Virus record (IMG/VR): IMGVR_UViG_3300022926_000007
Coordinates: 1 to 64,000 of that record
Length of the DNA: 64,000 nt
Direction: 5' to 3' (one strand)
Source: a virus
Numbering within the stretch: position 1 is the first letter of the stretch; the number at the start of each line of letters is the position of its first letter. The notes under the pieces were generated by a model that was not told the origin of the DNA, made no database searches, and was given only the letters and a program-made list of their open reading frames with translations. The position numbers and the translations under genes were made by a program. Below are positions 11,286 through 51,061 of this stretch, piece after piece.

Positions 11286-11291
11286 TATATT

Positions 11292-11579: not shown

Positions 11580-11584
11580 AATAC

Positions 11585-11592
11585 TATTTATA
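11585..11592 (-). promoter_or_regulatory. T4-type late promoter inside the enzyme island
   Basis: TATAAATA on the minus strand. Confidence 0.7.
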
Positions 11593-12037
11593 TAACCCCT
11601 ACTATATGTATTCTATCCAGCATGGAGGCGTTTAATGCTGTGTGATTTTTTGTTGTATCAACTACATGATAATTACCATCTGCAGGATAATGAAAAATTT
11701 GTTTATCTATAATTATAAAACAACTTTCATTTGTTTCAATAGGTATGTGTATTCTTTTTGATAAATCTTTATGATAAGTATAACATGTTTTAGGTTTTAA
11801 ATTCATTACTCTGGTACGATACATTTTTAAATCTGATAAAATACTGTTAATATAAGGCAGATCAAAAATAAATGTGCTAAAATCTGTTTCTTTATATCCC
11901 ATTTCATATTTTTCATTCCATTTACCCACACCCCAAAATGGATCTAAATTATCTTTGGTACCTTGAAGACAAATTTGTTCATCAAACTTAGGTAATAGCT
12001 TTAGTTCACTTTTTATTTTTTCTATATCTAAGGACAT
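11588..12037 (-). CDS. aspartyl/asparaginyl beta-hydroxylase-family oxygenase
   Basis: RTRVMNLKP...YHKD...RIHIPI...HTALN...RIHIV. Confidence 0.75.
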   Translation of the reverse strand: MSLDIEKIKSELKLLPKFDEQICLQGTKDNLDPFWGVGKWNEKYEMGYKETDFSTFIFDLPYINSILSDLKMYRTRVMNLKPKTCYTYHKDLSKRIHIPIETNESCFIIIDKQIFHYPADGNYHVVDTTKNHTALNASMLDRIHIVGVI

Positions 12038-25352: not shown

Positions 25353-25577
25353 TTAATGTTTTTCATCAACCACCTTTAATAATAATTGTTTAATTTCTGT
25401 TAATTCATTTTTTAATGTATTAATATCTCTAATCATTTCTCTCAATTTGTCACTTTCTTTATTTTTTTGAGTGACTCTTTGCATATATGCGAAATACCCT
25501 TTTCGATCAGAATTAACAATAGCTTGTGTTCTTGTATCTTTTATAAAACTTCTATCTTGTTCTATTACTTTTCTCAT
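25353..25577 (-). CDS. small conserved coiled-coil protein
   Basis: Coupled to the upstream gene by TAATG; D..TQAIVN.D...LKNELTEIKQLL. Confidence 0.6.
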   Translation of the reverse strand: MRKVIEQDRSFIKDTRTQAIVNSDRKGYFAYMQRVTQKNKESDKLREMIRDINTLKNELTEIKQLLLKVVDEKH

Positions 25578-30100: not shown

Positions 30101-32724
30101 ACTTCAGAGTTTCCATAGTTTGAACCCAAGTCAATAGTTAACTGATTTGAATTACCTGATAATGAAAATATTGTATTACCTTCGTGGTTATTTCCTGATA
30201 AAGAAGTTATTTCACCAACTTCACCTGATGATGAACCTGCAGTTATATGCATTAACGCATAATCTCCTGAAGATAACGAAGCAAAAGTTTCATTTGAACC
30301 TGCATTAAAAATACCAATACCATCACCTGTTAGAGTCGTAACAAATTGTCTTCTAACGGTAAATGATGTGTCAGTTAATCCGTTGTTTGTAGCAGTTTTT
30401 AAAGTTTTAATAACTTTTTCTGGTAATTTATAAACTAAAGTATTGTTTGTTGTTTCTTGTAATTTTGTTCTTCTTCTTTCAACTGGTGAGGCCGTTGTAA
30501 CATCAGAACCACCTACAGCGGCAGATAATGTTAAACTTGTATCACTTACAATTGCTAATACAGTAGCAGTTAATTCTTCTCCAGTATTATCAGTAAATAC
30601 AATTGTGTCCCCACTTATTAATTCTGTTGTAAATTTTGTTCCTTGACCAATAACATCAGCACTACTATTTGCTACACTAATAGTTCCTGTTAAAGTATAT
30701 TGTGAATCATCTGTTGAAGATGTTGCATTACTTGTTAATACTGTATCTGCTGTAAACGCTGGTGTATTAGCTTGATAAATTTGTTTTACATTTTTAAAAT
30801 CATATACAATAACAGATTTAAAATAATTTGTATCTGTAGTTATGACTGCTGTATTACTTGAAGTAGCACCTGTAATTGTATCACCAGCAGTAAAAGTTCC
30901 ACTTTTGTTTGATATAACTACGATACCATTTTGAGCTGTTCCACCTGAAGTGTAACCACTAAATCCTGAAGTATCAGTAGCAATTGTAAATTCGCTAGCA
31001 CCTGTAACAATAATTTCATATGTGTTACCATTTACTTCAGTCATACCACCAACGCTGTCAAAAGTAACATTTTGTCCTGTTGATAAATTGTGTGATGATG
31101 ATGTTGTAACAGTTAATAAAACTGCTGATGTTGCCACCATATTTGAAATAGCAGCTGTAACTGAAGTCGAAGCGGCCTCTACAATACCACTTGCGCCTGA
31201 TACATTTGTTACAGTTTCACCTGTTGTAAGTGAATGTGCTAATTTTGTTCTTAAATGTGTAAATGCTGTAATATTAAATAAACCTAATTTATAATTTGAT
31301 GTAGTATTAGATGATGACGCACCAACTGTACCTGAATTGTATTCAAAAAATCTAGGATGTGCTACACCTATTTGATGTATGTCAGTACCTACGCCACTAT
31401 TTGCTGAACCACGTGAAGAAGTCGCTTCTTTATATAAAGATACTTCTTTATAAGCTTCTGTATCACCAGCAACTGTATCTACATCTGGCGATCCATAAAT
31501 GTTTGAAACTTCTACAAAATTACCTAACGCTAATCCAGTTGTAGAATTATTAACTGTTTTAAAATCTCTGGACTTATCTATTGTAACATATTTTGTAGCT
31601 ATAGTTTCTAACTCATAACCTTGAACATATGCTTTACCTGATCCTAATCCAATAGCTAATCTTGCTTTTGATTCTTCAGCTGTTAAATCAAATTCGTAAC
31701 GTGGATCTAATACTGTTCCTACTCTTGTTGTATCTGGTCTATAAATACCTCTTTCATATTGAGATATAGTTGAGTCAAAATGATGTTCTCTTACATCAAT
31801 GTCAAAATTTCTTACAACATAGTTTCCTGATTCATCAAATGTTCTACGAGCAAGTGTGTCAGCAATTAAACTATAATCTGTTTTTATAACTTTTGTAATT
31901 AAGTTACCATTATCAATTCTTAATAATTCTATAAAGTCATCATCTTCAGTAGATGTTAAATCTTTTTTAGCAAGTGTTAATGTAATTTTAAATCTATGAG
32001 CGCCTGGTGCATTTACATTTGAAGAACCTTGAGCGTTATCATTTAAAGAGGTATCATCTGAAGGTGTAATTAAACTTTCTGTAATTGTAAATCCAACTTT
32101 AAAACTAGGGTTTACAAAATAAGGTTCTAATATTATTGTTTGTGCTTCATTTTGTACAAAAAATCCATTTACATAATAAATTCCAGCTTCTACTCTCACA
32201 GCAGATCCAGTTCCTACTGCATTTGAGTCAATAGGTAATGCTACTCCATTTGTACCTACTGTAGCAGTTTCACCACCATCTCCTGTTAAAGTTTCTGTAC
32301 TAACAAATCTATTAATAACTCCAGCACTAGCACCTGTACTTGCTGTTTTTGTATAGTTGACAAATATTGTTGCGGCTTCTGTATCAGTAGCAGCAGTTGC
32401 ATTTATAACTTCAGCAACTACACCATTCGTGTCACCTGTAAAAATTGTACCAATTAAATCAGATACATTTGAAGTTGAAAATGTTGAAAGTTTAACGAAA
32501 TGATAAGTGTTTATATATTGTATTTCACCAGGAATAACTTGAGCGCCATCTTTAAATATGTGATCTCCAAATCTTTTAATTTGATTTTGAAGTATTGATT
32601 GTACTTGAGTTAATTCTCTTGCTTGAACAGCAAATCCAGGACGAAATAAAATTTTATGAAATCTTTTTGACTCTAAATAATCATCAAAGTACGGACTAAT
32701 ATTAAAATCAGTTTTTGTGGCCAT
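27163..32724 (-). CDS. large VrlC/DUF4815-like virion protein with a C-terminal Hint domain
   Basis: SPYFDDY...LFRPGFAVQARELTQ.QSILQNQ, PGAHR, RFKNGFLVD; CFIAGT...VVHN near the C-terminus. Confidence 0.85.
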   Translation of the reverse strand: MATKTDFNISPYFDDYLESKRFHKILFRPGFAVQARELTQVQSILQNQIKRFGDHIFKDGAQVIPGEIQYINTYHFVKLSTFSTSNVSDLIGTIFTGDTNGVVAEVINATAATDTEAATIFVNYTKTASTGASAGVINRFVSTETLTGDGGETATVGTNGVALPIDSNAVGTGSAVRVEAGIYYVNGFFVQNEAQTIILEPYFVNPSFKVGFTITESLITPSDDTSLNDNAQGSSNVNAPGAHRFKITLTLAKKDLTSTEDDDFIELLRIDNGNLITKVIKTDYSLIADTLARRTFDESGNYVVRNFDIDVREHHFDSTISQYERGIYRPDTTRVGTVLDPRYEFDLTAEESKARLAIGLGSGKAYVQGYELETIATKYVTIDKSRDFKTVNNSTTGLALGNFVEVSNIYGSPDVDTVAGDTEAYKEVSLYKEATSSRGSANSGVGTDIHQIGVAHPRFFEYNSGTVGASSSNTTSNYKLGLFNITAFTHLRTKLAHSLTTGETVTNVSGASGIVEAASTSVTAAISNMVATSAVLLTVTTSSSHNLSTGQNVTFDSVGGMTEVNGNTYEIIVTGASEFTIATDTSGFSGYTSGGTAQNGIVVISNKSGTFTAGDTITGATSSNTAVITTDTNYFKSVIVYDFKNVKQIYQANTPAFTADTVLTSNATSSTDDSQYTLTGTISVANSSADVIGQGTKFTTELISGDTIVFTDNTGEELTATVLAIVSDTSLTLSAAVGGSDVTTASPVERRRTKLQETTNNTLVYKLPEKVIKTLKTATNNGLTDTSFTVRRQFVTTLTGDGIGIFNAGSNETFASLSSGDYALMHITAGSSSGEVGEITSLSGNNHEGNTIFSLSGNSNQLTIDLGSNYGNSEVKFTATIVRNVAVEKLKTLVSGATTSITTEATATNSIISLGKADIYQLNSVYMSPDFATAATTSHTNITDRFDLDNGQRDNFYDLGRLKLKSGSQVPTGQLLINFDYFTHGAGDYFSVDSYAIDYTNIPTFKSENKGETLELRECVDFRPRVADDSNVIGYNDKDATGAKNFTGTNAVSVDIPKPGSNFRADFEFYLSRIDAIYMTTSGQFKQARGASAVDPQRPDTIDNSIILCYLRLPAYTFSTSDVTVIPVDNRRYTMRDIGKLESRIKNLEYYTSLSLLEQETLNLEIQDANGFNRFKNGFLVDTFKGHNVGDTTNSDYQCSMDLENGVVRPRCFTDQVSLIETATNDTARTAAGYQKTGDLITLPYTEVELVSNLSATTTVNVNPFNVFTYVGNMKITPEFDEWKDTKTSPDLVVNNDLLYNSIKDIPNPSHRTGTVWNEWQNNWTGTFIEKTHSGNQTTVKEGRTGSATRSGLKRELSSQVVQQSFGERLVDLSYVPYIRSKTISFTVTGLKPLSKHYAYFEDVDVDSYVTPTGGSLGGQLTSDANGSLSGTFAIPNPSVSGNPKWRCGERVFKITDSQSNFRTGRNNESFASTKYRAQGLLVTEQETVYATRVPDVIETKLLEENSVREITSSTTYSSGGSSSGSNRGTDNNDSGGWEDRDKDGLPDRIDPDDNDPNVRTYSDLKERNAERAKTAQAIKDNKAGIGGSCFIAGTKVSMADGTFKNIEDVVVGDKVKGYKEENTVIKLDPTLLAERKLYSFNDNEHYFFTSEHPFMTEEGWKSIKPEKTKERDGVELYEQLKGELKVGDKLVTNNGLVEITSINSKVINNPQLPLYNFNVSNDNSYIADGYVVHNKGSSGGKVLCDYIYELGLLDKRLWELDEEYGKWAMLNDPELMIGYHAWAYPLIEEMKSNTKIGKIAFFFTKHLVPHWAKYLAGEKTIIGSLLHNIGKPICRVIGKIKKNRINKTRGTI
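27520..27957 (-). other. Hint (intein-like) autoprocessing domain, 146 aa
   Basis: Block A CFIAGTKVSMADG, block B TSEHPF, blocks F/G LYNFNV...YIADGYVVHN; the +1 residue is Lys. Confidence 0.85.
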
Positions 32725-41636: not shown

Positions 41637-41654
41637 TTTTTTTGCTTTTTTTGC

Positions 41655-41683
41655 TTGACTTTTATGTATTTATCTGGTATATT
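41655..41683 (+). promoter_or_regulatory. sigma70-type early promoter
   Basis: TTGACT-17bp-TATATT with an extended TG. Confidence 0.75.
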
Positions 41684-41719
41684 GGACGAGTAATGACAAC
41701 AAAAACAAAGGAAAACACA

Positions 41720-42055
41720 ATGTTAAACAAAAAAGAAAAAAACAAACACAATATATCATTATCACTTTTAAAATCAATTAAGTATATTGATAAAAATGAT
41801 TATGATTTAGTTAATAAAGTAACAAAAATGAAAAATGATAGTAATAAAACTTATTATTTCATTAATTATGATAGTGTTACGCCTTCATATGTTGTGAAAG
41901 AAACTATCAGACCTTTCAATAGAACGAAGAAATATATTTCTAGTCAAAAACCTGTGATGAAAATATCTTCAATCTATAATCAATCTATGTATAGAACAAT
42001 TGATATACAAAAATATATTGATATTATTAACAAAGAAGAAAAGAAAGTAGCATAA
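41720..42055 (+). CDS. hypothetical early protein
   Basis: Start moved downstream of the promoter; AAGGA RBS before MLNK (alternative start 41693). Confidence 0.6.
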   Translation: MLNKKEKNKHNISLSLLKSIKYIDKNDYDLVNKVTKMKNDSNKTYYFINYDSVTPSYVVKETIRPFNRTKKYISSQKPVMKISSIYNQSMYRTIDIQKYIDIINKEEKKVA

Positions 42056-42231
42056 TGACAAATATTTTATCTATTACTACTATTGTTTCATTAATATTAG
42101 CTGCTGGCGCCATTGAAGATTGTGGTGGCGCCTGTATTGGAAACGAAAATTGGACAGCATTTTTTATTTGCTTGACAATTGCTATGATTTGTGGTATACT
42201 AACCATATTAACACTTAAAAAAGGAGACTAA
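42055..42231 (+). CDS. small two-TM membrane protein, 58 aa (not in the ORF track)
   Basis: MTNILSITTIVSLILAAGAIEDCGGACIGNENWTAFFICL...; TAATG overlap. Confidence 0.65.
   Translation: MTNILSITTIVSLILAAGAIEDCGGACIGNENWTAFFICLTIAMICGILTILTLKKGD
42172..42200 (+). promoter_or_regulatory. sigma70-type early promoter
   Basis: TTGACA-17bp-TATACT with an extended TG. Confidence 0.75.
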
Positions 42232-42234
42232 ACT

Positions 42235-42597
42235 ATGATAAAAGTAGAAAAAACAGCAAATACACTAGACGAAGGAATTAAAAACTTAATGGCTGGTGCT
42301 AAACAAGACTATGTAAGAATGTCAACAATGGGTGGCAAAGAACTTACTGGTTATTCTAAAGAACAAGTTGACAATTGGGATATGAAAACAAGAGTTTCAT
42401 TCGGTAAAAAGTATATTAAAGTTGTACAAGATACTGGTGTTTTTTGTTTTATTGCTAAAGAAGACTTTAAACATTTTAAAAAAGGTGATATATTAAAAGC
42501 GGCTGGTTGGAATGCTCCTGCTTTAAACTCACCAAGAGGAAATGTATTAACAGGTAACTATCCAATTCAATGGACAGGTCCATTATATTTAAAATAA
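42235..42597 (+). CDS. conserved phage hypothetical protein
   Basis: GKKYIKV...GDILKAAGWNAPA...RGN...WTGP.YL motif; AAGGAG RBS. Confidence 0.7.
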   Translation: MIKVEKTANTLDEGIKNLMAGAKQDYVRMSTMGGKELTGYSKEQVDNWDMKTRVSFGKKYIKVVQDTGVFCFIAKEDFKHFKKGDILKAAGWNAPALNSPRGNVLTGNYPIQWTGPLYLK

Positions 42598-42618
42598 AAT
42601 AATAAAGGAGAAAACACT

Positions 42619-42858
42619 ATGATGATAGAAACACTAAACAAAATGAGTATCACTCAATTAAATGATACCAAGGCTATGATTGATGTATTAATCAAGTCTA
42701 AAGTTAAAAACGAAATGAAGGTTGGCACAAAGGTGAATGTTGTACAAAAAACTAAAAAGACGCCTGGTGTAATTACCAAAATTATGAATAGTAAATGTCT
42801 GGTTGATTTATCAGGCAGAATCTATAGAGTACCAATGACAATGTTGGAGGTAGCATAA
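42619..42858 (+). CDS. small SH3/KOW-like hypothetical protein
   Basis: KVGTKV...GVITKI...YRVP; AAGGAG RBS. Confidence 0.6.
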   Translation: MMIETLNKMSITQLNDTKAMIDVLIKSKVKNEMKVGTKVNVVQKTKKTPGVITKIMNSKCLVDLSGRIYRVPMTMLEVA

Positions 42859-43130
42859 TGTTGTACGCTGATAAAGTTATGAATACTGATTATTACCAAA
42901 AACTAAAAAAGGTTAGTAATAGTATTGCTAAAAAATATAAAGGCCACCCTTTAGAGAAAGGAATAGCCAAAGGCATACCAATGAAGTATCTGCCTTTGTT
43001 TAAAGAGTTTTCTAAAAAAGTAAAACCTTTAAGAATAAGATATAGAGGCAATTCAAAACCAGGTTATAGACGGCCAAGGGATTATGTTCATATGGCCTAT
43101 GCTGATACTTTTGCCATTTATTACAGATGA
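42858..43130 (+). CDS. hypothetical protein
   Basis: GGAGG RBS; RIRYRG...A.TFAIY. Confidence 0.6.
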   Translation: MLYADKVMNTDYYQKLKKVSNSIAKKYKGHPLEKGIAKGIPMKYLPLFKEFSKKVKPLRIRYRGNSKPGYRRPRDYVHMAYADTFAIYYR

Positions 43131-43297
43131 TAAAATATCAAGTTACAAAAGACGGCAAGATTTTAAAAGAGTTTGATAATGATTGGGATGCCGCCATCTT
43201 TGCCTGTAATAATGAATACGGACCAGGTATGAAAATATATACAAACTCAAAAGAGAAAACAGAAAGTTGGATACACTTTGAATACAAAAAAATATAA
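43127..43297 (+). CDS. hypothetical 56-aa protein (not in the ORF track)
   Basis: MIKYQVTKDGKILKEF...; ATGA overlap with the previous gene. Confidence 0.55.
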   Translation: MIKYQVTKDGKILKEFDNDWDAAIFACNNEYGPGMKIYTNSKEKTESWIHFEYKKI

Positions 43298-43517
43298 AAT
43301 AGATTATTATTTAAAATGGATAGCGACAGGCCTATTAATTATCGGCGCCGCTCTTAATTCACTTAATATCTATCCATATGGACCTTTAATGAATTTATTA
43401 GGTGGCTTTGTATGGTTGGCTGTTTCAGTTATGTGGAAAGAAGCCGCCTTAATTACAACTAATGTTGTTTTAGCTAGTGTAACTATTATAGGATTAGTTT
43501 ACACGTATTTCTTTTAA
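43278..43517 (+). CDS. small multi-TM membrane protein
   Basis: LKWIAT...NIYP...W.E.ALI..N, three hydrophobic helices. Confidence 0.6.
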   Translation: MNTKKYKIDYYLKWIATGLLIIGAALNSLNIYPYGPLMNLLGGFVWLAVSVMWKEAALITTNVVLASVTIIGLVYTYFF

Positions 43518-43594
43518 GCAGACGTAGCTCAATTGGTTAGAGCGCTGGTTTGTGGAACCAGAGGTTGATTGTTCGATTCAATCCGTCTGTACCA
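43518..43594 (+). tRNA. tRNA-His (GTG) with encoded CCA
   Basis: Cloverleaf: acceptor GCAGACG/CGTCTGT, D arm GCTC/GAGC, anticodon arm CTGGT-TTGTGGA-ACCAG, T arm GATTG-TTCGATT-CAATC, ACCA end. Confidence 0.95.
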
Positions 43595-43620
43595 GTTTCT
43601 TTGTTGTTGATTGTTAAAGT

Positions 43621-43690
43621 GAGAGGTGCTTGTGTGTGGAGGTAAGCACCTCTCTATGAGAGAGCTACGCTCTCTCGTGGTGTGGTATAG
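43621..43690 (-). ncRNA. candidate two-hairpin small RNA
   Basis: TATAAATA at 43692-43699, followed by perfect 8-bp and 11-bp hairpins; no ORF seen. Confidence 0.5.
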
Positions 43691-43702
43691 TTATTTATAC
43701 AC

Positions 43703-43897
43703 TTACCAATTATTTGTGGATTTAACTTTTGTGTGAGCTAAGACTTTATCTTTGTTTGGTCCGTGTTTAACAATGTAACCAGATGTTCCACCAGCATTGA
43801 TGTCAACTTCTTTTCTGGCACTAAACAAAGCTTTTGTTTTTTTCTCAAGCTCTTTAGACTTACTATAACCTGTAAGTAATCTTGTATGTCTTTCCAT
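43703..43897 (-). CDS. small basic protein downstream of the glutamine riboswitch
   Basis: 64 aa; strong AAGGAGG RBS. Confidence 0.7.
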   Translation of the reverse strand: MERHTRLLTGYSKSKELEKKTKALFSARKEVDINAGGTSGYIVKHGPNKDKVLAHTKVKSTNNW

Positions 43898-43921
43898 AAC
43901 ACCCTCCTTTTTAAAGTTAGG

Positions 43922-43968
43922 TGCGTTCCTTCGGCATTTGCCTACTTCCGTCCGTTTCAGGATGAACG
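43922..43968 (-). ncRNA. glnA-type glutamine riboswitch
   Basis: CGUUCAUCC-UGAAAC-GGACGGAAGUA-GGCA-AA-UGCC-GAAGGAACGCA: P1 CGUUC/GAACG, P2, and P3 with an E-loop (AGUA/GAA). Confidence 0.85.
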
Positions 43969-43976
43969 TATATTAT

Positions 43977-43984
43977 TATTTATA
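43977..43984 (-). promoter_or_regulatory. T4-type late promoter immediately before the riboswitch
   Basis: TATAAATA. Confidence 0.7.
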
Positions 43985-44046: not shown

Positions 44047-44526
44047 TTAAAATTTTGATAAGAAGTTTGCGATTTGTTTGACAAATGGAAGTAATGTAAA
44101 CGCCATTATCAAATTTACACCAGTATGTGCTAAAGCGATATGTCTTGTAATTCCTTGTGGTATTCCATCAGATACTAAAAATCCAGCAATCCATATTGTA
44201 CCTGTTGTACCTATGTTTGCCCCTAATACGGCGGCTATGGCCGCTGGTAATGGAACGGCACCAGAGGCAACAAGAGCTATGATTGCTGTCGTTGATAGTG
44301 ATGATGATTGCCAAAGTAATGTCATAATGATACCACCAAAAAACATATAAACTGTATTGTGTGTAAAATAAGATAAGTGATCTAAATTACCCATTGATTT
44401 CATTCCACCTGAAAACATTTTCAAACCAATATAAAATACCACTAGACCTACAAGGGTAGTGATTATAGGATTCCCTAATTCCATTTCTTTGACCTTTTTG
44501 ATTAGTTTTTTAAATGAAGACCTCAT
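44047..44526 (-). CDS. Na+/phosphate cotransporter family protein (single repeat)
   Basis: QSSS signature followed by LGANIGTT; LAHTGVN. Confidence 0.8.
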   Translation of the reverse strand: MRSSFKKLIKKVKEMELGNPIITTLVGLVVFYIGLKMFSGGMKSMGNLDHLSYFTHNTVYMFFGGIIMTLLWQSSSLSTTAIIALVASGAVPLPAAIAAVLGANIGTTGTIWIAGFLVSDGIPQGITRHIALAHTGVNLIMAFTLLPFVKQIANFLSKF

Positions 44527-44574
44527 CTAAAAAATATTTAGAACTAGAAAAGTGATTGTAACAAAAGTTTAATA

Positions 44575-45861
44575 CTATTGTATGATAAGGTAAATACTAC
44601 TATCCGTTGTAAGTTTTTTGGATGTAAAGTAATTAAACTTCATATGATTTTCAAAAGACTTTGGTTTCATTAAAAAAGAATACATATAACTCATTAAGTT
44701 GGCAAATCTATCTTGTACTAGTTTGTCACCTCTTTTAAACAATCGTATGGCCTCATCATAGTTTTCAATTGTATTTGACAATCGTTTATACTTACTAAAC
44801 ATTTCTTTTAATTCTCTTTGTGCTACACTATAACTTGATTGATTTACACCACCACCTCTTAATTTGTAATTATATTCTTCATCTACATATTTTGTATAAG
44901 CCTTAGCATCAACGGCGCCTGTTTGAAAACCAGCACCAATAAAACGGCCTTCTAATGAAACGTTTAATGTAGTAGCACTTGCCTTAAAACCCACACGAAC
45001 AGCAAAACCAGATTTAGTTATAACAATAAAATTATTAAAACTTTCTGATAAATCCACTCTATCAAACTTTAAATCTAAATCTAACTTTTGTGTCATTAAT
45101 TTACTCGGGTCAATAATAGAAGAAGTTGCTCTTGGCTTTTCTACTTGTTTAAGTGAAATAGGAATAACATCTCTTTTTTTAAAGGCCTTTGTTAATTCAC
45201 CATTTAACTCATTGGCCGATTTAGAATTTAATAAAGGTTTCATATTATAATTTTTACGTATCATCCATACATCACCTGGATTCCAGTTATCATCTAATTT
45301 ACCCGTTAACCCACGAGCTAGTTTATATAACTCATTGGTCATTGGACCTTTTTGTCTTTCGTAATGATAACCTTTTTTTAGTTTATACTTTTTTAATTCA
45401 TTTAATTGCTTTAAAGCACTTTCATAATAAAAACTATCAAACAATGTTTCATACACACCTTTAATTTTTCCCACCATTGATTTAACTTGTTCCTCTTTTA
45501 AAGTACGGCCTGTTTCAATATAACTTTCAAATAGATGCATTGATACTAATTCTTTTATTTCAGTCAATACATTGGTTTTTGATTTGGCGTTGGCCGTATA
45601 GTGATTAAATGAACCGTTAATAGAACTTTCAGATCCTTCAATTAACACAATCTTATTTTTACTATCTTTAAGTACAATGGATTTATTGCCTTTGGCCAAT
45701 TCTATAAACTTATTGGCCTTAACTTTTCTACGTATAATTAAAAACACAGATTTACCTGGCACATAACCCTCTTTTTTAAACAAGGCACTATTTACAGGCT
45801 TATCTTTTAATATAACTCTATGGTTTTCACCATACTTTTTATTTTCTACGATTGACGCCAT
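44575..45861 (-). CDS. putative PD-(D/E)XK-fold nuclease
   Basis: DNWNPGDVW...ISLK motif; TATAAATA at 45885-45892. Confidence 0.5.
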   Translation of the reverse strand: MASIVENKKYGENHRVILKDKPVNSALFKKEGYVPGKSVFLIIRRKVKANKFIELAKGNKSIVLKDSKNKIVLIEGSESSINGSFNHYTANAKSKTNVLTEIKELVSMHLFESYIETGRTLKEEQVKSMVGKIKGVYETLFDSFYYESALKQLNELKKYKLKKGYHYERQKGPMTNELYKLARGLTGKLDDNWNPGDVWMIRKNYNMKPLLNSKSANELNGELTKAFKKRDVIPISLKQVEKPRATSSIIDPSKLMTQKLDLDLKFDRVDLSESFNNFIVITKSGFAVRVGFKASATTLNVSLEGRFIGAGFQTGAVDAKAYTKYVDEEYNYKLRGGGVNQSSYSVAQRELKEMFSKYKRLSNTIENYDEAIRLFKRGDKLVQDRFANLMSYMYSFLMKPKSFENHMKFNYFTSKKLTTDSSIYLIIQ

Positions 45862-45937
45862 AATTCTCTCTCTTTATACTTCAATATTTATAGAATGGCA
45901 AGAGATTTTTTCCGAGTTTCCGGTGGTTAAGTGGCCT

Positions 45938-46201
45938 CTAAGGCTTAATTCTTAATAGTATCTTTTTAATGTTTTCATACCAGAATATACCACTTTGTCG
46001 TAGTTTATTGTTAGAACTACGTAACTTCTCCAGACTATTACGTAACCGTGTAACTTGTGCCTTTGTAAGTCGTTTATCATTTTGTTGTAAATGTTCTAAC
46101 TTTTCTATTATATCATCTATTTGAATACAAGTGTAATCAGGTATCTTTGGTGCCTTCTTTTTTAGATAAGGTAGAGTAAAACTCTTAGGCCATTTTGCCA
46201 T
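45938..46201 (-). CDS. hypothetical coiled-coil protein
   Basis: APKIPDYTC..ID...LEKLR..N..LR. Confidence 0.55.
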   Translation of the reverse strand: MAKWPKSFTLPYLKKKAPKIPDYTCIQIDDIIEKLEHLQQNDKRLTKAQVTRLRNSLEKLRSSNNKLRQSGIFWYENIKKILLRIKP

Positions 46202-46550
46202 AGTAGTATGTCCTTTGTAAGTAACAGGCCAGTTGTTAAGGGGAATGTAGAATAATATTACTTTAATATTTAGGAGATAAAGTCGTCTTCCTACGTGTAT
46301 TTTTATCCGAGGGGTTTTTTCTATAAAAGGAAGTGTATTAAGTTGTCTAGCTGGACTCTAAGCTTTTCCTGATGGTTCAACACCACTATGTATAAGATAT
46401 AGAAACTCTACAAGGTGGCCATTTAAATATGGCCTCCAATATATCTATTAACATCTTTATTACATTTATAGTTTAGCAAGCCGCTCCAGTTTGCATAAGC
46501 ACTTTTCCACCACAGGTTTTCGAGCCATAAAAAACACGGCCATATATAAG

Positions 46551-47453
46551 CTAAGGGTTTAAGTCTATTGTAGAGCCTGTATGTATTACTGCTCCAGTTG
46601 TGTTACTTGTCTTTGTACCACTTATGGTTTCTGTTTTATTACCTGCTACGGCCACGTTTAGATTGCCGTTTATCTTTAAGTCGTAGTCGCCGTTAACTAT
46701 GACATCTTTGTCGCCTTGTATATAGACCTTGTTGTCGTTGGTGATTAAGATGTACTTGTCGTTTTTTATTATTTCAATGGTATCACCGTTTGCTGTCATT
46801 TCAATAGAAGTGCCTGACTTGTGACGTAGGTGTATTCGTTCTTTGGTGTCCGTATCATCAAATTCCATTATATGGCCAGACTCACTTTCGTAAACGTGAT
46901 TGTATGGATAAACGGCCGCATAATCAATTTCAGGTTGTGACCAAGTATTATTTACTCCTACAATATTGGTAATCCTATCGGCCTTTCGTGTCGTCAATGA
47001 CGCTGCCTCTTTGTCTGGATTATTAACGGCCAACCTATTGGTATCTGGCTCATCTACCTCTCGTGGATAGACCGACTTTGTTTCGTCATCTGGCCTTGGA
47101 TTTGGGTCATTAAACCCCTTATTTGGATTTCCCAATAAAGACGGCCTGCCAGGTAAACTACCTAACACTATAGGCTCTTGTAAGTCTTCATCTCTAAAAT
47201 ATCCAAACACCCAACTACCTTCAACAAAGGCCGAAGGTGATTGGCCAATTCCTGATATGCCGGCTGATGTAGTAGGTAACAAACAAGTTGCCCAAGGTAA
47301 ATCGGCCGTTGGTAATTTAATCTTGTCTTGTGTATGATAACCAATACAACGTACACGCACACGGCCAGTGTATTGAGGGTCTTGCCTGTCTTCAACTACG
47401 CCATTGAACCAGATGAAACCGTTACGGCCTAGAAAATTTTTGTCTGTAATCAT
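46551..47453 (-). CDS. gp5: baseplate central spike, no lysozyme domain
   Basis: GVVEDRQDP...GRVRVRCIG.H, LPWA, YPYNHVYESESGH..EFDDT, C-terminal beta-helix repeats. Confidence 0.9.
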   Translation of the reverse strand: MITDKNFLGRNGFIWFNGVVEDRQDPQYTGRVRVRCIGYHTQDKIKLPTADLPWATCLLPTTSAGISGIGQSPSAFVEGSWVFGYFRDEDLQEPIVLGSLPGRPSLLGNPNKGFNDPNPRPDDETKSVYPREVDEPDTNRLAVNNPDKEAASLTTRKADRITNIVGVNNTWSQPEIDYAAVYPYNHVYESESGHIMEFDDTDTKERIHLRHKSGTSIEMTANGDTIEIIKNDKYILITNDNKVYIQGDKDVIVNGDYDLKINGNLNVAVAGNKTETISGTKTSNTTGAVIHTGSTIDLNP

Positions 47454-47500
47454 TTTTATTTTTACCGATAATTGTCGCCTTTTAATTCACTCACTATACG

Positions 47501-47749
47501 CTATTTTAACCTATTTCTTCGTACTGTACGCAAATGGCCTATTCTATTACTTATACCACTTATAAGGCCTCGTATATACCCAAACCCTTGTCCCATATAG
47601 AAACAGGCAGTCGCCAGACTGACTTTAGCTTCGTGGCCTTCTAGTTTACCCTTGTAGAACCTCATATATTGTCTTCTATCATATTCCTCTATCAGTCTAT
47701 CGGAGAGGTGGCCGTATGAAGTTCTTATCTTGTTATATAATTTGTTCAT
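47501..47749 (-). CDS. hypothetical protein (uncertain)
   Basis: ORF only. Confidence 0.35.
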   Translation of the reverse strand: MNKLYNKIRTSYGHLSDRLIEEYDRRQYMRFYKGKLEGHEAKVSLATACFYMGQGFGYIRGLISGISNRIGHLRTVRRNRLK

Positions 47750-47875
47750 TGTCTTTATTTACTTGCCTTTCACTTTCATTTGTGTTATATTGTAGGCCAT
47801 ATACTCATATGTTGATTGGTGGCCTGCTCCACAGCGCTCGGAAGCGTCGGAAACTCTCTTATTCTCTATACCTCT

Positions 47876-49378
47876 CTAAAATCCATCTCCTATACTCTCG
47901 TTGTAATAGTTTTGATCTATTTCGTAGATGTTTTCTACTTTTCTTGTAAAATCCTTTAATGTAGGTGTAAATTCTGTGGTTTCGGCAACAAACTCGGTGT
48001 TTACACTATCTTTCATACACTTTAGTACCATTTCGTGTCTTAATAGTGTTGGATTAATAATATGTTTTACTGCCATTACCAAGTATCGGCCAGAATAAAA
48101 AGGATTAGACTCTTGTGTGTCGCCTTCTTCTATAAGTGGTCGCATAAGAGGTATATCAAAGGTAATGACATCTCCGGCGTTGATGGCAGTATTACCAAAC
48201 ACTTGTAGAGATAGATTAATATTGTTCATAGCCAGTCTTTGTGAGTTCTTTTGTTGTACTGTGACTTTTGGATCTATAATTTCATAATCATTGTGTATTT
48301 TACTTGTGTTTGACTCAACCATTACTCTGGCGTCTGAATGTTGTCCAAAGTCTTTTCTTGTATCTTCGTATGGGTGTATAGGTAGTACGCCCTTAAATCT
48401 TGCCTTTTCACCGCCACTATCAAATTCTAAATGAAAATGGTTTTTAAAGTCTGCAAAGTAGTCATAGTTCTTTTCTTCGTATGTCTTGTAAAATGTGTCG
48501 TGTGTAAACAATTTAGAGGCATATAAACCCTTGTTGACATTTTCTAACATATTGACTGGTCGTTCAAACTCGTACTTAATCACACCTTTCATATCCATTT
48601 CTACATCTTTTACGTTCTTGTCTGTATTTGAGTTGGCAATTTGATAATAGTAATTAAACTTAATAGGTCGTGGCATATTACCACCCGAAGCAATCATTGA
48701 CTCTAAACTTCTAAAGTGATAACCGTCTGTTGTTTCGTAAAAGAAATAACCTGCGTTGTTGTATTTCTGTGATATGGCGTCTTTGCCTAATAGTTGTATT
48801 GCTCTAAAAGGTTTAAAATTAGGTACAACAATCTTTGTGTTGGTGTTTGTGGGTTCAATAAAAAATCTTTTTTTAGAGTTTAGATATAATGGGTCACGTA
48901 ATATTGAGTTTACGCCGTTCTCTACTGGTCCTGCGTACGCCTGACTGACTCTTGTAATACTGTTTCTGTACGCCTCTGGCGAACAAAATAATATTCTATA
49001 CCGTTGTGCTCTAGGATTGGTTTGATCTACTTCTACTTTTTCTATTTTGTATATCTGAAATGGAAAACCCTCACCTCTTACATTGTTATAGCCTGGCAGA
49101 CCTGGAGTATTAAATTTAAGTTCTAACTTTTCTAAACCTGTTATTGGCAGTATTGTTCGTATATCTTGTGCATCATATACTGTTACTGAACCAAGTATTG
49201 AATTGCTTAATATGTCTTCTTTTAATTCTAAAAATTGTATAACACCACCAGACACTAAATCCATCTCATAGTTTACACCTTCCTCATCATTACGTCTATA
49301 AGATAGTATATTACAAATTTCTAAATTGTAATCACCGGCCTGTTCTATAATATTAGGATTCTTTTCATCAACTGCCAT
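47876..49378 (-). CDS. baseplate hub protein (gp27-like, by position)
   Basis: Between gp53 and gp5; LPITG.E, FFYE...YHFRSLE, SGRYLV..V.H. Confidence 0.65.
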   Translation of the reverse strand: MAVDEKNPNIIEQAGDYNLEICNILSYRRNDEEGVNYEMDLVSGGVIQFLELKEDILSNSILGSVTVYDAQDIRTILPITGLEKLELKFNTPGLPGYNNVRGEGFPFQIYKIEKVEVDQTNPRAQRYRILFCSPEAYRNSITRVSQAYAGPVENGVNSILRDPLYLNSKKRFFIEPTNTNTKIVVPNFKPFRAIQLLGKDAISQKYNNAGYFFYETTDGYHFRSLESMIASGGNMPRPIKFNYYYQIANSNTDKNVKDVEMDMKGVIKYEFERPVNMLENVNKGLYASKLFTHDTFYKTYEEKNYDYFADFKNHFHLEFDSGGEKARFKGVLPIHPYEDTRKDFGQHSDARVMVESNTSKIHNDYEIIDPKVTVQQKNSQRLAMNNINLSLQVFGNTAINAGDVITFDIPLMRPLIEEGDTQESNPFYSGRYLVMAVKHIINPTLLRHEMVLKCMKDSVNTEFVAETTEFTPTLKDFTRKVENIYEIDQNYYNESIGDGF

Positions 49379-49379
49379 T

Positions 49380-49916
49380 TTATACTCTAACTAGTTTTTC
49401 AAATTCTGTTTCAAATGCTCTTAAAAAACCTGGTTTTAATAATTTAATTTGTCTTTTCTTATCTTGTAATCTTTGTTCGTATTCATAATTAGTGACAGCA
49501 ACTGCTCCTGGTTGTGTGCTATTGACTTCTATTAAATAATCATAGTCATCAGGACCATTTGATGTTGTTGTACCACTTGATTGTGTTATTTCATAATGAT
49601 GAATACCACTCGGGTTGGCATATTTGTCTTTTACATATGACTCAAATGCTTGATATGATAACGGCCAGTCATAGTATCTATCTTTTATATTATTCAATAA
49701 TAGTATAACATAATAATATCTAACTGATCCATATATCTTGTAGGCAATTGTTTCAGGTGAATCACCACTATCTACATCATATTTGTCAAATAATTCGACA
49801 TTATCTCTAATTGACTCTTTTACTTTAACTCGTCTTAATATATCTGTTACAAGTTTATAGTTCTTTGTGTTGTCTATGTCGTATAGTATTTTAGGAAACT
49901 TTTCAAAATATGCCAT
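49380..49916 (-). CDS. gp53: baseplate wedge subunit
   Basis: YFEKFP, PETIAYKIYG (LysM-like), WPL, YEYE...KRQIKL. Confidence 0.85.
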   Translation of the reverse strand: MAYFEKFPKILYDIDNTKNYKLVTDILRRVKVKESIRDNVELFDKYDVDSGDSPETIAYKIYGSVRYYYVILLLNNIKDRYYDWPLSYQAFESYVKDKYANPSGIHHYEITQSSGTTTSNGPDDYDYLIEVNSTQPGAVAVTNYEYEQRLQDKKRQIKLLKPGFLRAFETEFEKLVRV

Positions 49917-51061
49917 TAGTGACCTCTTTCAATATCTGATTTAGTAATAAATGTAGTTTCTTTAAACGCTAAAGTTAAATTTGTCTGTACAGGCGGAGCA
50001 CCCTTTATAGTTTCTCCTAAACCTGTATTCATAATGTATTCATTAAACGAGCTAAACTTACCTTCAGGTCCATATGTTACGTCCATAGTTTCTAATACAC
50101 TTCTTGTAATTTTATTTAAAAAATCGTTTATATTATTTTTGTAATAATAAAATATTTCAAATTCTGAAGGCACTTTAAAAACTCTTCCACCTACAGATGA
50201 AGCGTCATAGCCTGGATGCATATGATATTTAAATAACCATATAATGTTATGTACCATTTCCATTTCATCTTCACTTTTAGGGAAAAATGTAAATGTATAA
50301 TTAAATGATCTAAAATTTGGTTTATTAAAAAATTGTTCTTCGTGTGGGTTAATAGCAATACCTAATGCCTTTGAACCTAATTTTACAGGATCACCTATTG
50401 AAGCATTACCAAATAAATCACCAACTGCTTTACCCAATTCAGTAGCCGCACCACCTACAGCACCACCAGCTAATGTTTTAAATTTTTCAAAAGCGCCTGT
50501 AGCGTTTTTAGCTTCACCTATAGTTCCTAATAATTGTCCTGATAAGTCTGTAGGTTCTGTATCATATGTCATTCCATAACTAACTTTAACTCCTGGAGGT
50601 AAATACAATGCGATAGCACCTGTTGATACGCTATGTGTTGGAAATTTTGATATTACACTATTGTTTGATTTTAGAGATCCTGGATTTACACCTTGTTGAT
50701 TAACCCTTAAATCTTTTATTTCTGGATCACCTGTATCTCTACCGCCTCCTCCACGACCAATAATTGGTTTTGCCAAACCCACTCTAGCCGCCATTACTTT
50801 GTCACTAGAAGTACCACTACCAAAATTATTTGATATACAATAAAATATAACATAGTGACCTAAACCCTCACTACCAATATCTAATGGATATCTTAATCCA
50901 GCAAATTTCAATGGATCTTTTTTCATTGATTCTTGTATTGAATCTGTAATTTCTGTTGCTGATGTATTTGTAATAGAATCAACAAATTTACCTGTAGAAT
51001 TATTAGATTTAGAATTTAATAATCTATTAGCTCTAAATTGTTGTAGTGGTATGTTCGCCAT
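49916..51061 (-). CDS. gp48: baseplate tail-tube cap
   Basis: LRYPLD, IALYLP, NP..E..F....FRSF.Y.F.F.PKS..E, L.F.E. Confidence 0.8.
   Translation of the reverse strand: MANIPLQQFRANRLLNSKSNNSTGKFVDSITNTSATEITDSIQESMKKDPLKFAGLRYPLDIGSEGLGHYVIFYCISNNFGSGTSSDKVMAARVGLAKPIIGRGGGGRDTGDPEIKDLRVNQQGVNPGSLKSNNSVISKFPTHSVSTGAIALYLPPGVKVSYGMTYDTEPTDLSGQLLGTIGEAKNATGAFEKFKTLAGGAVGGAATELGKAVGDLFGNASIGDPVKLGSKALGIAINPHEEQFFNKPNFRSFNYTFTFFPKSEDEMEMVHNIIWLFKYHMHPGYDASSVGGRVFKVPSEFEIFYYYKNNINDFLNKITRSVLETMDVTYGPEGKFSSFNEYIMNTGLGETIKGAPPVQTNLTLAFKETTFITKSDIERGH

Follow-up and report, generated by a model that had tools for sequence, protein, structure and literature searches.

A GGCC array over gp5 of a T4-like pelagimyophage, conserved across lineages and erased in others

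Introduction

Why should the palindrome GGCC crowd around a single baseplate gene of a T4-like phage? Few large phages infecting the ocean's most abundant bacteria are as abundant as the pelagimyophages, yet, to our knowledge, nothing is known on the sites and mechanisms by which they initiate DNA replication, recombination or packaging. The question arose from a 64,000-nucleotide stretch of viral DNA (the window; positions 1 to 64,000 of IMG/VR record IMGVR_UViG_3300022926_000007, an 81,746-bp contig), in which an earlier note had counted by hand an excess of GGCC sites centred on gp5, and had ascribed it to a cis-acting DNA element overprinted on genes, such as a replication origin, a priming-site array or a methylation-gated packaging site. 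The island proves to be a real, lineage-conserved GGCC array over the GC-rich gp5 and its flanks, found once per genome in a T4-like pelagimyophage.

The GGCC island and its parts

The four hand counts (32, 24, 8 and 5 sites) were reproduced exactly, and recounting also returned the 12 sites claimed for gp5 (table 1). The 8 sites lie in 44749-45718, and the 5 in the low-density comparison stretch at 25577-32724 (0.70/kb). The contig contains 127 GGCC in total, and its densest 3-kb window holds 30 of them against a mean of 4.66 (Poisson p approx. 5e-15). In the tetramer clustering scan of the whole contig that had been proposed as a check, the clustering of GGCC was the strongest among strand-symmetric tetramers after the homopolymer AAAA, and the island at gp5 was its sole peak in the 81.7 kb. 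The sites are irregularly spaced (median gap, 69 bp; coefficient of variation, 0.78), with nothing beyond H-GGCC-D as an extended motif around them; the Rayleigh signal for helical phasing at 10-10.5 bp is weak and not above that of unrelated periods, in pooled sequences that are themselves related.

Table 1. Coordinates of the GGCC island, its parts and the adjoining recombinant tract (window numbering).
Feature	Position	Strand	GGCC sites	Remarks
Whole GGCC island	44749..47824		32	3,076 bp; 10.4/kb
Island core	45933..47824		24	1,892 bp; 12.7/kb; matches the pooled peak at -500 to +1500 around the gp5 start in GGCC-rich relatives
gp5, baseplate hub/spike gene, 300 aa	46551..47453	-	12	PHROG 430, E=3e-88; Pfam Gp5_OB, E=2e-27
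Basic ORF, 82 aa, immediately upstream of gp5	47501..47749	-	4	GC3 0.373, the contig maximum
Non-coding spacer, upstream island edge	47750..47875			GGCC at 47795 and 47821
Non-coding spacer downstream of gp5, 349 bp	46202..46550		4	GGCC at 46227, 46417, 46431 and 46538
ORF, 87 aa	45938..46201	-	1	another GGCC at 45933, just beyond the ORF
Late gene, 428 aa, island shoulder	44575..45861	-	8	PHROG 1462 (function unknown)
Mosaic (recombinant) tract directly downstream of gp5	44571..45415			defined by substitutions versus L001

The gp5 product consists of an OB domain and a C-terminal beta-helix, without the lysozyme domain, and its gene ranks second among 109 for GC3 (0.365). The 82-aa ORF gave no family match in profile searches, its homologues being recognizable in only 5 of 82 targets (80 loci and two complete genomes), and the 87-aa ORF gave no match above threshold; the 428-aa gene is equipped with a late-promoter consensus of its own, TATAAATA, at 45885-45892 (-). 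The spacer downstream of gp5 matches neither Rfam families nor tRNAs. Two of its four GGCC form a 6-6-6 inverted repeat, and it differs by several substitutions and indels from that of the 98%-identical relative L001. The two spacers had been described as unusually long, which holds for this one, seventh among the 72 intergenic gaps of a crude gene call, but not for the 126-bp gap at the upstream edge, which falls outside the top 14.

Composition, codon usage and non-coding DNA

Local composition predicts 2.8 (mononucleotide model) or 4.6 (dinucleotide model) GGCC in 44749-47824, versus the 32 observed. The other tetramers made of G and C only are present there in 0-13 copies each (CCGG, 2; GCGC, 1; GGGG, 2), and this scarcity indicates that the island is not explained by its G+C content. 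A second-order Markov model does predict 26 sites, but the reasoning is circular, since GGC and GCC in the region lie mostly within GGCC.

When the gp5 codons are shuffled among its own synonymous positions, 4.1±1.5 GGCC are obtained instead of 12, and only 0.61±0.73 are expected if the same protein is written with genome-wide codon usage. For the 428-aa gene the corresponding values are 1.9±1.2 and 0.43±0.60, versus 8. The non-coding DNA within the island is similarly enriched, with 7 GGCC in 651 bp (10.8/kb) compared with 11 in 7,406 bp elsewhere (1.5/kb), an approximately 7-fold difference. A milder excess is also found outside the island, where the observed/expected ratio over composition is 1.90 across the contig. 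The possibility, raised in the earlier note, that the enrichment might vanish after correction for local G+C content and codon usage is not borne out: the island is maintained at the nucleotide level, being spelled wherever silent codons or non-coding DNA allow it.

Conservation and erasure among relatives

In the complete genome of Pelagibacter phage Mosig (141 kb) the highest 2-kb GGCC bin falls at gp5, and each of four longer relatives belonging to different clades has a single GGCC peak, again at gp5. By pooling the GGCC-rich relatives, a density of 12.9/kb is found in the first 500 bp of gp5, versus 0.9-2.7/kb at more than 2 kb from the gene start. Far from being absent near gp5 in relatives, the outcome that had been named as refuting, the island is present there even in distant ones.

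The effect of codon context was determined on 47 non-redundant gp5 sequences, including 28 GGCC-rich and 12 GGCC-poor ones. In the rich set, Gly is encoded by GGC in 76% of cases before C versus 32% otherwise (odds ratio, 6.9; p=1e-32), and Ala by GCC in 68% of cases after G versus 19% (odds ratio, 9.4; p=7e-31), whereas the poor genes avoid GGCC in the same contexts (odds ratios, 0.42 and 0.16, respectively). In most rich gp5 genes no tetramer scores higher than GGCC (z, 3-6.7), and the word is found in codon phases 0, 1 and 2 in 171, 14 and 166 instances, respectively. The claim of an element overprinted on genes gains from the nearly equal use of phases 0 and 2, from the non-coding sites, from the synonymous choice, and from conservation of the island once per genome.

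Conservation of individual sites is uneven. GGCC is found at alignment columns 936, 702 and 87 in 27, 26 and 24 of the 28 rich sequences, respectively; the window sites at 46874 and 47363 correspond to columns 702 and 87, and those at 47028 and 46914 to columns 455 and 662, where GGCC is common to 18/28 and 16/28 rich relatives. However, just 5 of the 74 columns ever used for GGCC are occupied in at least half of the rich sequences. With a median protein identity of approximately 64%, the rich relatives thus share few near-fixed sites while the others turn over, each gene keeping 9-17 GGCC.

The rich state is present in every major gp5 clade and is common to lineages with saturated silent sites; on a quick maximum-likelihood tree the poor state requires at least four changes. 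Phage HTVC008M is an extreme case, with no GGCC in gp5 and 22 versus 112 expected genome-wide; the observed/expected ratio given above as 1.90 for the contig is 0.23 in HTVC008M and 1.11 in Mosig. Columns 936 and 702 retain GGCC in 5 and 6 of the 12 poor sequences, respectively, and gp5 is a GC3-rich patch in all lineages, the GGCC-free ones included. Further 4-mers are likewise purged in these phages, Mosig itself having 0 ACGT versus 249 expected. A comparison of the neighbouring genes across relatives revealed none that tracks the GGCC-rich state.

In sister lineages the sites have been erased, and GGCC is actively avoided there. With many distant relatives keeping the island and others having erased it, it looks like a selected DNA signal; a published description of such a GGCC island was not found in the literature searched. 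The extreme lineage-specific purging of 4-bp palindromes implies intense pressure from 4-cutters, and passages in two papers describe the host group of pelagimyophages as carrying almost no restriction systems (PMC7029224, PMC9516812).

A recombinogenic junction

The island lies where the conserved baseplate module gives way to a hypervariable region. Of 170 substitutions between the window and L001, 132 fall in the mosaic tract (approx. 16% divergence) and 3 in gp5. Moreover, 25 of 80 contigs terminate within 300 bp downstream of gp5, versus 5.2 expected. On the basis of the mosaic tract and of the excess of contig ends, the gp5 junction is recombinogenic. No breakpoint was seen at the gp5 boundary by comparison with relatives L002-L005, identity being even (66-71%) across it.

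Interpretation

The reading preferred here, tentatively and with less than even confidence, is that of a double-stranded-DNA GGCC array marking a replication or recombination hotspot. GGCC being a 4-bp palindrome of the restriction/modification type, the array would be read on duplex DNA by a putative 4-bp-specific factor. It would most likely mark a hotspot of DNA transactions, in which replication initiation would be accompanied by recombination as in T4-like phages, placed at the baseplate/hypervariable junction and in the same gene as T4 oriE. The array would have been lost in lineages facing hosts or competitors that cut GGCC, a loss that would be tolerable since T4-like phages use several origins and recombination-dependent replication. 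The complete loss of GGCC from HTVC008M gp5 indicates, however, that the array is dispensable, which counts against a hotspot. The excess outside the island and the universal GC3 patch are not needed by a focal binding array either, and fit a graded process better. Searches of the incomplete contig and of the relatives' fragments yielded no candidate reader, a further point against this reading. The GC skew, which had been suggested as a check, and the AT skew follow gene orientation with no switch at gp5. In a more specific and rather doubtful form of the proposal, Mosig-type pelagimyophages would carry an undescribed cis element, namely a bare 4-bp palindrome repeated over approximately 2-3 kb and superimposed on the spike gene, read by a restriction/modification-derived protein and nucleating replication or recombination at the hypervariable boundary.

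The main rival, possible although somewhat unlikely, is that GGCC is the by-product of GGCC-directed mismatch correction or gene conversion in heteroduplex DNA, so that the sites need no function. E. coli VSP repair is known to affect the abundance of CCWGG, and the activity could be of this very-short-patch type, or of the methylation-linked kind put forward for the HIP palindromes of cyanobacteria; as a recombination hotspot, the gp5 junction would then accumulate silent-site G/C along with GGCC. In the model of Elhai, over-represented palindromes are an epiphenomenon, generated and kept up by a mismatch repair that depends on methylation (PMC4390886). Such a process would account for the graded pattern of a genome-wide excess with a focal peak, for the GC3-rich patch in every lineage, GGCC-free ones included, and for the turnover of most sites with neither a spacing rule nor an extended motif, and the recombinogenic setting suits it. 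However, the GGCC methylase that had been suggested as a target for searching did not emerge: PF00145, PF01555 and the NCBIfam methylase models had no match in the contig (58% of the genome) or in the incomplete records of five relatives, where DNA methyltransferases (cytosine or N4/N6), restriction enzymes and Vsr were all sought without success; the annotation of Mosig, the only complete genome of these, includes neither Vsr nor a cytosine methyltransferase. Furthermore, GGTC is still found at ordinary frequency at the GGCC columns of the rich lineages, indicating that the expected deamination/mismatch product is not specifically depleted. GGCC persists at columns 702 and 936 in roughly one avoider in two, as if these individual sites were constrained, and the even identity across the gp5 boundary versus L002-L005 also speaks against it. 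If biased repair did produce the island, the phage would offer a clear example of sequence evolution driven by conversion.

It is improbable that the island is a cluster of methylation sites in which hemi- or fully methylated GGCC gates the initiation of packaging, like GATC at P1 pac, or times some other step. A local, once-per-genome cluster of a classic methylase word would fit, and sections of two papers are in line with it, one recording a methylated GGCC motif only in viral MAGs of marine methylomes, the viruses being unspecified (PMC9516812), the other an orphan GG(m4C)C methylase of Synechocystis that affects transcription, replication and repair (PMC6604393). That no cytosine DNA methyltransferase was found in the incomplete contig and the relatives' fragments weighs against such a gate. 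At oriC and P1 pac the sites are packed into a few hundred base pairs, and the likeness to these clusters drawn in the earlier note fails on spacing, which is far too wide and irregular here (median, 69 bp; no 10.5-bp phasing) to resemble theirs. T4-like phages use headful packaging and are not known to need a strict pac site, which is a further argument against methylation-gated packaging.

A priming-site array is less probable still. In this case, primase would read a GC-rich trinucleotide (GCC/GGC, rare at 31% G+C), which GGCC offers on both strands. The contig encodes a DnaG-type primase, GCC and GGC are among the most enriched gp5 trinucleotides in the contig, Mosig and HTVC008M, and in the GGCC-avoiding lineages gp5 still uses GGC for 37-59% of Gly and GCC for 36-58% of Ala outside the forbidden context. 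However, several other GC-rich trinucleotides are equally enriched at gp5, and in the window GGC and GCC outside GGCC (12 and 24 in 3,076 bp) are approximately at background.

An RNA-level signal, with the self-complementary GGCC stabilizing or structuring late mRNA near gp5 or marking its processing, is very improbable. All 20 dinucleotide shuffles of the sense gp5 RNA fold less well than the RNA itself (z, -2.9), which does not hold for the antisense (z, -0.7), but the folding of gp5 is unremarkable with respect to synonymous shuffles (z, -1.18; 3 of 25 as stable), in which the GGCC count does not predict the folding energy (r, -0.10). The gene is covered by RNA contigs of four metatranscriptome runs (strand-blind), and in poor lineages GGCG and CGCC could pair with each other; on the other hand, the island covers at least two late transcription units as well as non-coding DNA, and sister lineages that erase GGCC and then avoid it are what restriction of DNA would be expected to leave.

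The least probable proposal, that of a passive footprint in which gp5 is either recently imported or just richest in GC among the genes, with no force favouring GGCC, is already strongly disfavoured, for gp5 is indeed within the top 1% of GC-rich windows of three genomes and other GC-rich words also peak there, but the own-codon shuffles, the rank of GGCC among tetramers, the dependence of both odds ratios on the neighbouring base, the non-coding enrichment with CCGG and GCGC not enriched, the rest of the contig not being purged of GGCC, and the sharing of the rich state by lineages with saturated silent sites all oppose it.

Whatever its reader, a once-per-genome and strongly maintained signal provides a concrete place to look, in a group for which the Mosig/HTCC1062 system is cultured, the island of Mosig being a weak one. 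A single gene family that includes both rich and erased states forms a natural experiment setting a functional DNA word against cutting enzymes. If the more specific form of the hotspot reading is true, the recurrent erasure of the array in lineages that encounter GGCC-cutting enzymes would be a visible trade-off between the phage's own DNA signalling and escape from restriction.

Comparison with known systems

Restriction-site avoidance fits the sister lineages, as seen from the genome-wide deficit in HTVC008M and from the avoidance of GGCC-forming codon pairs in poor gp5 genes. In the parts of the avoidance literature covered by the search no case of local enrichment of a restriction-type palindrome surfaced, and it is in this respect that the window differs, being enriched in one both locally and genome-wide.

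As at E. coli oriC and P1 pac with GATC, a restriction/modification-type 4-bp palindrome is over-dense in a unique cis region. However, those systems have a known methylase and a reader, while here 32 irregularly spaced sites extend over 3 kb and the search for a methylase in the incomplete sequences gave none.

A third likeness is to HIP1 (GCGATCGC) of cyanobacteria, described in sections of one paper as an over-represented, conserved palindrome in coding DNA, possibly a product of repair bias (PMC4390886). HIP1 is described as an 8-mer found at approximately one site per 1,000 nt along whole genomes and tied to known orphan methylases. In contrast, the word is here a 4-mer whose excess across the genome is only 1.9-fold and which has a single sharp focus instead of an even density.

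A fourth parallel is with T4 oriE, whose overlap with gene 5, cited in the earlier note, agrees with the T4 RefSeq annotation: oriE is at 79355, within gene 5 (77959-79686), its primer RNA is noted as the complement of the gene 5 transcript, and repEB and repEA are antisense within the gene. A T4 review places oriE near a switch of the transcribed strand and iterons at syntenic places in close T4 relatives (PMC3016281). In the window, transcription changes to plus-strand genes at 41642-43517, approximately 3 kb away from gp5, so that in both phages a nucleotide-level element would be overprinted on gp5 near a change of transcribed strand. The parts nevertheless differ. T4 gene 5 has 1 GGCC and an ordinary GC3 of 0.219, unlike the GGCC- and GC3-rich gp5 described here, and its oriE iterons are 12-nt repeats with 24-nt spacing that mirror the beta-helix protein repeat, whereas spacing in the island is irregular and no iterons of this type were found in it. 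Counterparts of RepEA and RepEB were sought by tblastn with the T4 proteins, yielding only E>1; antisense ORFs in gp5 do not exceed 36 aa, and sigma-70-like promoter matches are at chance level (23 versus 22.7 expected). The parallel with T4 oriE is a purely positional one and, if the more specific form of the hotspot reading is true, the Mosig-type array would correspond to T4 oriE in function while sharing none of its components.

The GGCC island and its gene neighbourhood

The window takes up the first 64 kb of a viral contig (81,746 bp, 31% G+C, estimated to be 58% complete) that its gene content and similarity place among the T4-like pelagimyophages. Of the named phages, Pelagibacter phage Mosig EXVC030M is the nearest, with 68% identity in DNA across part of the region and 46.6% in the gp5 protein. 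In a crude longest-ORF set of gene calls, with ATG starts only, all genes surrounding the island lie on the minus strand, and the next plus-strand genes are found at 41642-43517. The T4 late-promoter consensus, TATAAATA, is matched ahead of gp48 (51081) and ahead of the 428-aa gene (45885), with no match directly before gp5, so that the island extends over portions of two or more late units.

Features in and around the GGCC island, in window coordinates
Feature	Coordinates	Strand	Remarks
gp48 tube cap	49916-51061	minus	
gp53-like wedge protein	49380-49916	minus	
500-aa tail protein	47876-49378	minus	
82-aa ORF	47501-47749	minus	
gp5	46551-47453	minus	OB domain and C-terminal beta-helix, no lysozyme domain
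349-bp spacer			between gp5 and the 87-aa ORF
87-aa ORF	45938-46201	minus	
428-aa gene	44575-45861	minus	function unknown
Na/Pi-cotransporter-like fragment, 159-aa ORF	44047-44526	minus	Pfam PF02690, E=9e-16
Glutamine riboswitch	43920-43970	minus	Rfam RF01739, 58.9 bits, E=2e-11; directly upstream of the 64-aa ORF
64-aa ORF	43703-43897	minus	
tRNA-His (GTG)	43518-43594	plus	ARAGORN and Rfam; where plus- and minus-strand genes converge

The Rfam and tRNA search of the spacers gave matches solely outside the island. A late-promoter consensus at 43977-43984 precedes the glutamine riboswitch, and in all four metatranscriptome runs RNA contigs cover 43569-43935 at 20-90x depth, far exceeding that of adjacent genes. 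The 159-aa ORF is a partial match to NCBIfam Na_Pi_symport (positions 123-258 of 294) and could be either a fragment or an auxiliary gene of minimal size; homologues were found at only four of the best 80 of 314 related loci, all four GGCC-rich.

Every hand count of GGCC in the earlier note proved exact on recount. The whole contig contains 127 GGCC, with 30 in the densest 3-kb window against a mean of 4.66 (Poisson p ~5e-15), a clustering that is the most extreme, contig-wide, among tetramers except AAAA. For the island itself (44749-47824, 32 sites), 2.8 sites would be expected from the local base composition and 4.6 from dinucleotides, and the remaining fifteen G/C-only tetramers number just 0-13 each (CCGG 2, GCGC 1), so that it is GGCC as a word, rather than G+C content, that stands out. 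The 12 sites in gp5 compare with 4.1±1.5 when its own synonymous codons are shuffled and 0.61±0.73 under genome-wide codon usage, and the 8 in the 428-aa gene with 1.9±1.2 and 0.43±0.60, respectively. Non-coding DNA shares the enrichment, with 7 sites in 651 bp within the island and 11 in 7,406 bp of intergenic sequence outside it. No longer motif surrounds the sites (only G is excluded on the 5' side and only C on the 3' side), and their spacing, in a pooled test of related sequences, is neither regular nor helically phased. As to the unusually long spacers ascribed to the zone, the 349-bp spacer is long, although not unique (7th of 72 gaps), whereas that of 126 bp falls outside the 14 longest. 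In the spacer downstream of gp5, a 6-6-6 inverted repeat at 46417-46434 (GGCCAT / TTAAAT / ATGGCC) has one GGCC in each arm, and its centre is not the same in the 98%-identical relative L001.

Distribution of the island among relatives

An IMG/VR scan with gp5 gave 314 relatives, the best 80 of which were used. By thresholds of our own (rich, 8 or more GGCC per kb of gp5; poor, 3 per kb or fewer), 45 of these best 80 of 314 are rich and 20 poor; many loci are near-duplicates, and key tests were repeated on a non-redundant set. When the rich loci are pooled, GGCC density is highest between about -500 and +1500, counted from the gp5 start (consecutive 500-bp bins giving 7.0, 12.9, 10.5 and 6.9 per kb), with 0.9-2.7 per kb more than 2 kb away from it; the poor loci have 0-2.2 per kb in every bin and no peak at gp5. 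In the complete genome of Mosig (141,461 bp) the gp5 bin is the top 2-kb bin genome-wide, with 9 GGCC against 0-5 elsewhere, a weak island. Four longer relatives (55, 24, 23 and 22 kb), which belong to different clades, likewise have their only GGCC peak at gp5. Thus, the absence near gp5 in relatives, which the earlier note would have held against its proposal, is not what the rich loci, Mosig and the four longer relatives show.

No island is present in OM43 phage Melnitz (2 GGCC in gp5), in T4 gene 5 (1 GGCC) or in any of the 27 loci of the HTVC008M-type gp5 clade. Mosig and HTVC008M share the host strain on which they were isolated; the complete genome of HTVC008M carries 22 GGCC where 112 would be expected, and its gp5 lacks the word altogether. 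In a quick version of the gp5 maximum-likelihood tree, rich sequences are found in each major clade and the poor state requires at least four changes, with the window and L001 being sister to the poor loci L002-L004.

Writing and erasing of GGCC by codon choice

From an alignment of 72 full-length gp5 genes, 47 sequences with less than 90% protein identity to one another were retained, of which 28 are rich, 7 intermediate and 12 poor; their median pairwise protein identity is 64%. The 28 rich genes contain 9-17 GGCC each (median, 13). In them Gly is encoded by GGC in 76% of cases if the next base is C and in 32% otherwise (odds ratio 6.9, p=1e-32), and Ala by GCC in 68% if the previous base is G and in 19% otherwise (odds ratio 9.4, p=7e-31). 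By codon phase, the sites number 171 in phase 0 and 166 in phase 2, where a silent position is available, against 14 in phase 1, where none is. Of the 74 alignment columns bearing GGCC at least once, five carry it in at least half of the 28 rich sequences, namely 936 (27), 702 (26), 87 (24), 455 (18) and 662 (16). The closest poor relatives, among the best 80 of 314, are only 66-71% identical to the window in DNA, so that silent sites are saturated; yet the number of sites is approximately constant and a few positions are fixed, which argues for a force acting on the word GGCC itself.

For the 12 poor gp5 genes, GGC is used in 26% of cases before C against 46% otherwise (odds ratio 0.42, p=0.005), and GCC in 12% after G against 45% otherwise (odds ratio 0.16, p=3e-5). 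At conserved dipeptides they use, for example, GGA-CAx or GGC-AGA where rich sequences encode the same residues by GGC-CAx and GGC-CGx, and GGCC is kept at column 702 in 6 and at column 936 in 5 of the 12. In poor gp5 genes CGCC/GGCG is frequently the most enriched word (z of 3.4-4.8 relative to shuffles within the gene); in our reading, this follows automatically where G/C-ending codons are generally preferred and GGCC is banned. Replacement of GGCC by another palindrome in the poor lineages was also considered, as CCGG and GCGC first seemed raised; the unbiased test gave CGCC/GGCG instead. Depletion of GGTC, considered as a sign of T:G correction, is not diagnostic, since poor lineages and ordinary genes show the same change from GGT to GGA ahead of C.

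A G+C-rich patch in a purged palindrome landscape

gp5 is a G+C-rich patch in rich and poor pelagimyophage lineages alike. The two highest GC3 values among the 109 contig genes are those of the 82-aa ORF (0.373) and gp5 (0.365; mean 0.196, s.d. 0.061), becoming 0.342 and 0.325 after masking of GGCC; in relatives, gp5 GC3 is 0.347 (rich) and 0.351 (poor), and that of flanking ORFs 0.227 and 0.205. By G+C, gp5 ranks in the top 0.25% of equal-size windows in the contig, 1.0% in Mosig and 0.5% in HTVC008M. T4 gene 5, with a GC3 of 0.219, differs in not being G+C-rich, and gp5 of Melnitz shows only a mild G+C rise.

Purging of 4-bp palindromes is extreme and lineage-specific across the three genomes. 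Outside the island the contig has no CGCG (13 expected), and observed/expected ratios of 0.20 for CATG, 0.26 for TCGA and 0.31 for CCGG; Mosig has no ACGT (249 expected) and GATC at 0.06 of expectation; HTVC008M has 2 TCGA (182 expected) and GGCC at 0.23 of expectation. CGCG is absent or almost so in all three. SAR11 hosts are said, in the passages concerned of two papers, almost to lack restriction systems (PMC7029224, PMC9516812). GGCC is the sole clearly over-represented palindrome of the contig outside the island (1.90), where the other genes show a two-fold context preference, GGC making up 19% ahead of C and 10% otherwise, and GCC 17% following G and 7% otherwise.

Two other local clusters were observed. 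Of the 54 CATG of the contig, otherwise scarce, 15 lie in one 3-kb stretch (window ~9000-12000; 2 expected) encoding metabolic proteins, namely a TauD-like dioxygenase, a redoxin, an FMN reductase and a fatty-acid desaturase, and possibly a recent import still unpurged. In HTVC008M, 22 AGCT (3.1 expected) occupy 72000-75000, over the scaffold and major-capsid genes, with AGCT elsewhere at 0.34 of expectation, an apparent second local cluster of a purged palindrome.

A probably recombinogenic junction

gp5 is located at the margin of a variable region. Of the 170 substitutions that separate the window from L001, 132 fall within 44571-45415 and 3 in gp5. In 25 of the best 80 of 314 relatives the contig stops no more than 300 bp downstream of its match to gp5, against 5.2 if ends were uniformly placed; this pile-up, found equally in GGCC-rich and GGCC-poor contigs, is compatible with assemblies breaking off where conserved sequence gives way to hypervariable sequence. 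Comparison with L002-L005 gave no sign of a recombination breakpoint at the start of gp5, identity being 66-71% throughout. The relevant passages of a study of pelagimyophage genomics call gp5 unusually divergent, describe hypervariable regions between modules, and do not mention palindromes or GGCC (PMC7029224).

Possible meaning of the island

The island is very probably a real and specific feature, which many lineages keep up at the level of DNA and others have erased; no published description of such an island was found in those parts of the literature searched for it. A putative array of sites read on duplex DNA, which might mark a hotspot of replication or recombination where the modules meet, is tentatively favoured as the likeliest reading, on the grounds that the island occurs once per genome, has fixed core sites, lies in a recombinogenic setting and is syntenic with oriE. 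The main rival, somewhat doubtful in its turn, takes GGCC as what biased repair directed at this word leaves behind at a hotspot of recombination. This rival accounts better for the two-fold genome-wide GGCC excess and for the G+C-rich silent sites, and Elhai's model for the palindromes of cyanobacteria, as outlined in the relevant part of that work (PMC4390886), gives it a precedent in print, but it comes without an enzyme.

The other readings are less likely than either of these. Methylation-gated packaging, advanced in the earlier note, appears improbable. Methylated GGCC is reported as a motif seen solely in viral MAGs in marine methylomes, the viruses being unspecified in the passage concerned (PMC9516812), and an orphan GG(m4C)C methylase of Synechocystis is described, in the pertinent section, as affecting replication, repair and transcription (PMC6604393). 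The search for a reader of GGCC, which bears on the duplex-DNA array as well, gave no cytosine-5 or N4/N6 DNA methyltransferase (PF00145, PF01555), and no Vsr (PF03852), in the 58% of the genome estimated to be covered by the contig; no restriction enzyme or DNA methylase was identified among 88 proteins by Pfam and 65 by NCBIfam; and there was no cytosine-5 methylase (PF00145) in the records of five relatives (11-39% complete) and no cytosine methylase in the annotation of the complete, weak-island Mosig. The absence of a reader is not strong evidence, since all records except Mosig are fragments and the island of Mosig is weak. No adjacent gene tracks the rich state.

An array of priming sites is less probable still. 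An RNA-level role for GGCC is very improbable, the folding tests supporting an RNA-structure role weakly at best: the sense RNA of gp5 folds better than 20 of 20 dinucleotide shuffles (z -2.9; antisense, -0.7), but against 25 synonymous shuffles z is -1.18 for gp5, -2.09 for the 428-aa gene and -0.08, +1.77 and -0.09 for three controls, and the GGCC count of a synonymous shuffle does not predict its folding energy. RNA contigs from four metatranscriptome runs span gp5 at low depth and carry no strand or end information. A passive footprint is scarcely credible.

Comparison with T4 oriE

The overlap of T4 oriE with gene 5, stated in the earlier note, is borne out by the T4 RefSeq record, where oriE is at 79355 and gene 5 at 77959-79686, the primer RNA is noted to be the complement of the gene 5 transcript, and repEB and repEA are annotated antisense within the gene. 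The relevant sections of a review describe oriE as one of five main T4 origins, close to a switch of the transcribed strand, with evenly spaced 12-nt repeats of unproven role, similar ones being syntenic in close relatives (PMC3016281). In the T4 sequence these repeats lie at 24-nt spacing in the beta-helix region (79402-79569; 6403-6570 of our T4 record, L099) and match an octapeptide repeat of the protein, so that the 'iterons' may be the mere DNA image of the gp5 beta-helix. They have no counterpart in the island over the window's gp5. No homologues of T4 RepEA or RepEB were found, promoter-like sites are no more frequent than chance would give, gp5 contains no antisense ORF longer than 36 aa, and neither GC nor AT skew switches at gp5; the skews track gene orientation alone and are therefore uninformative for or against an origin. 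With none of the parts of T4 oriE found here, the parallel is one of position only. Of the main T4 origins, only about three lie in or beside genes shared with pelagimyophages; with these few candidates among five, the coincidence of the island with gene 5 keeps some weight.
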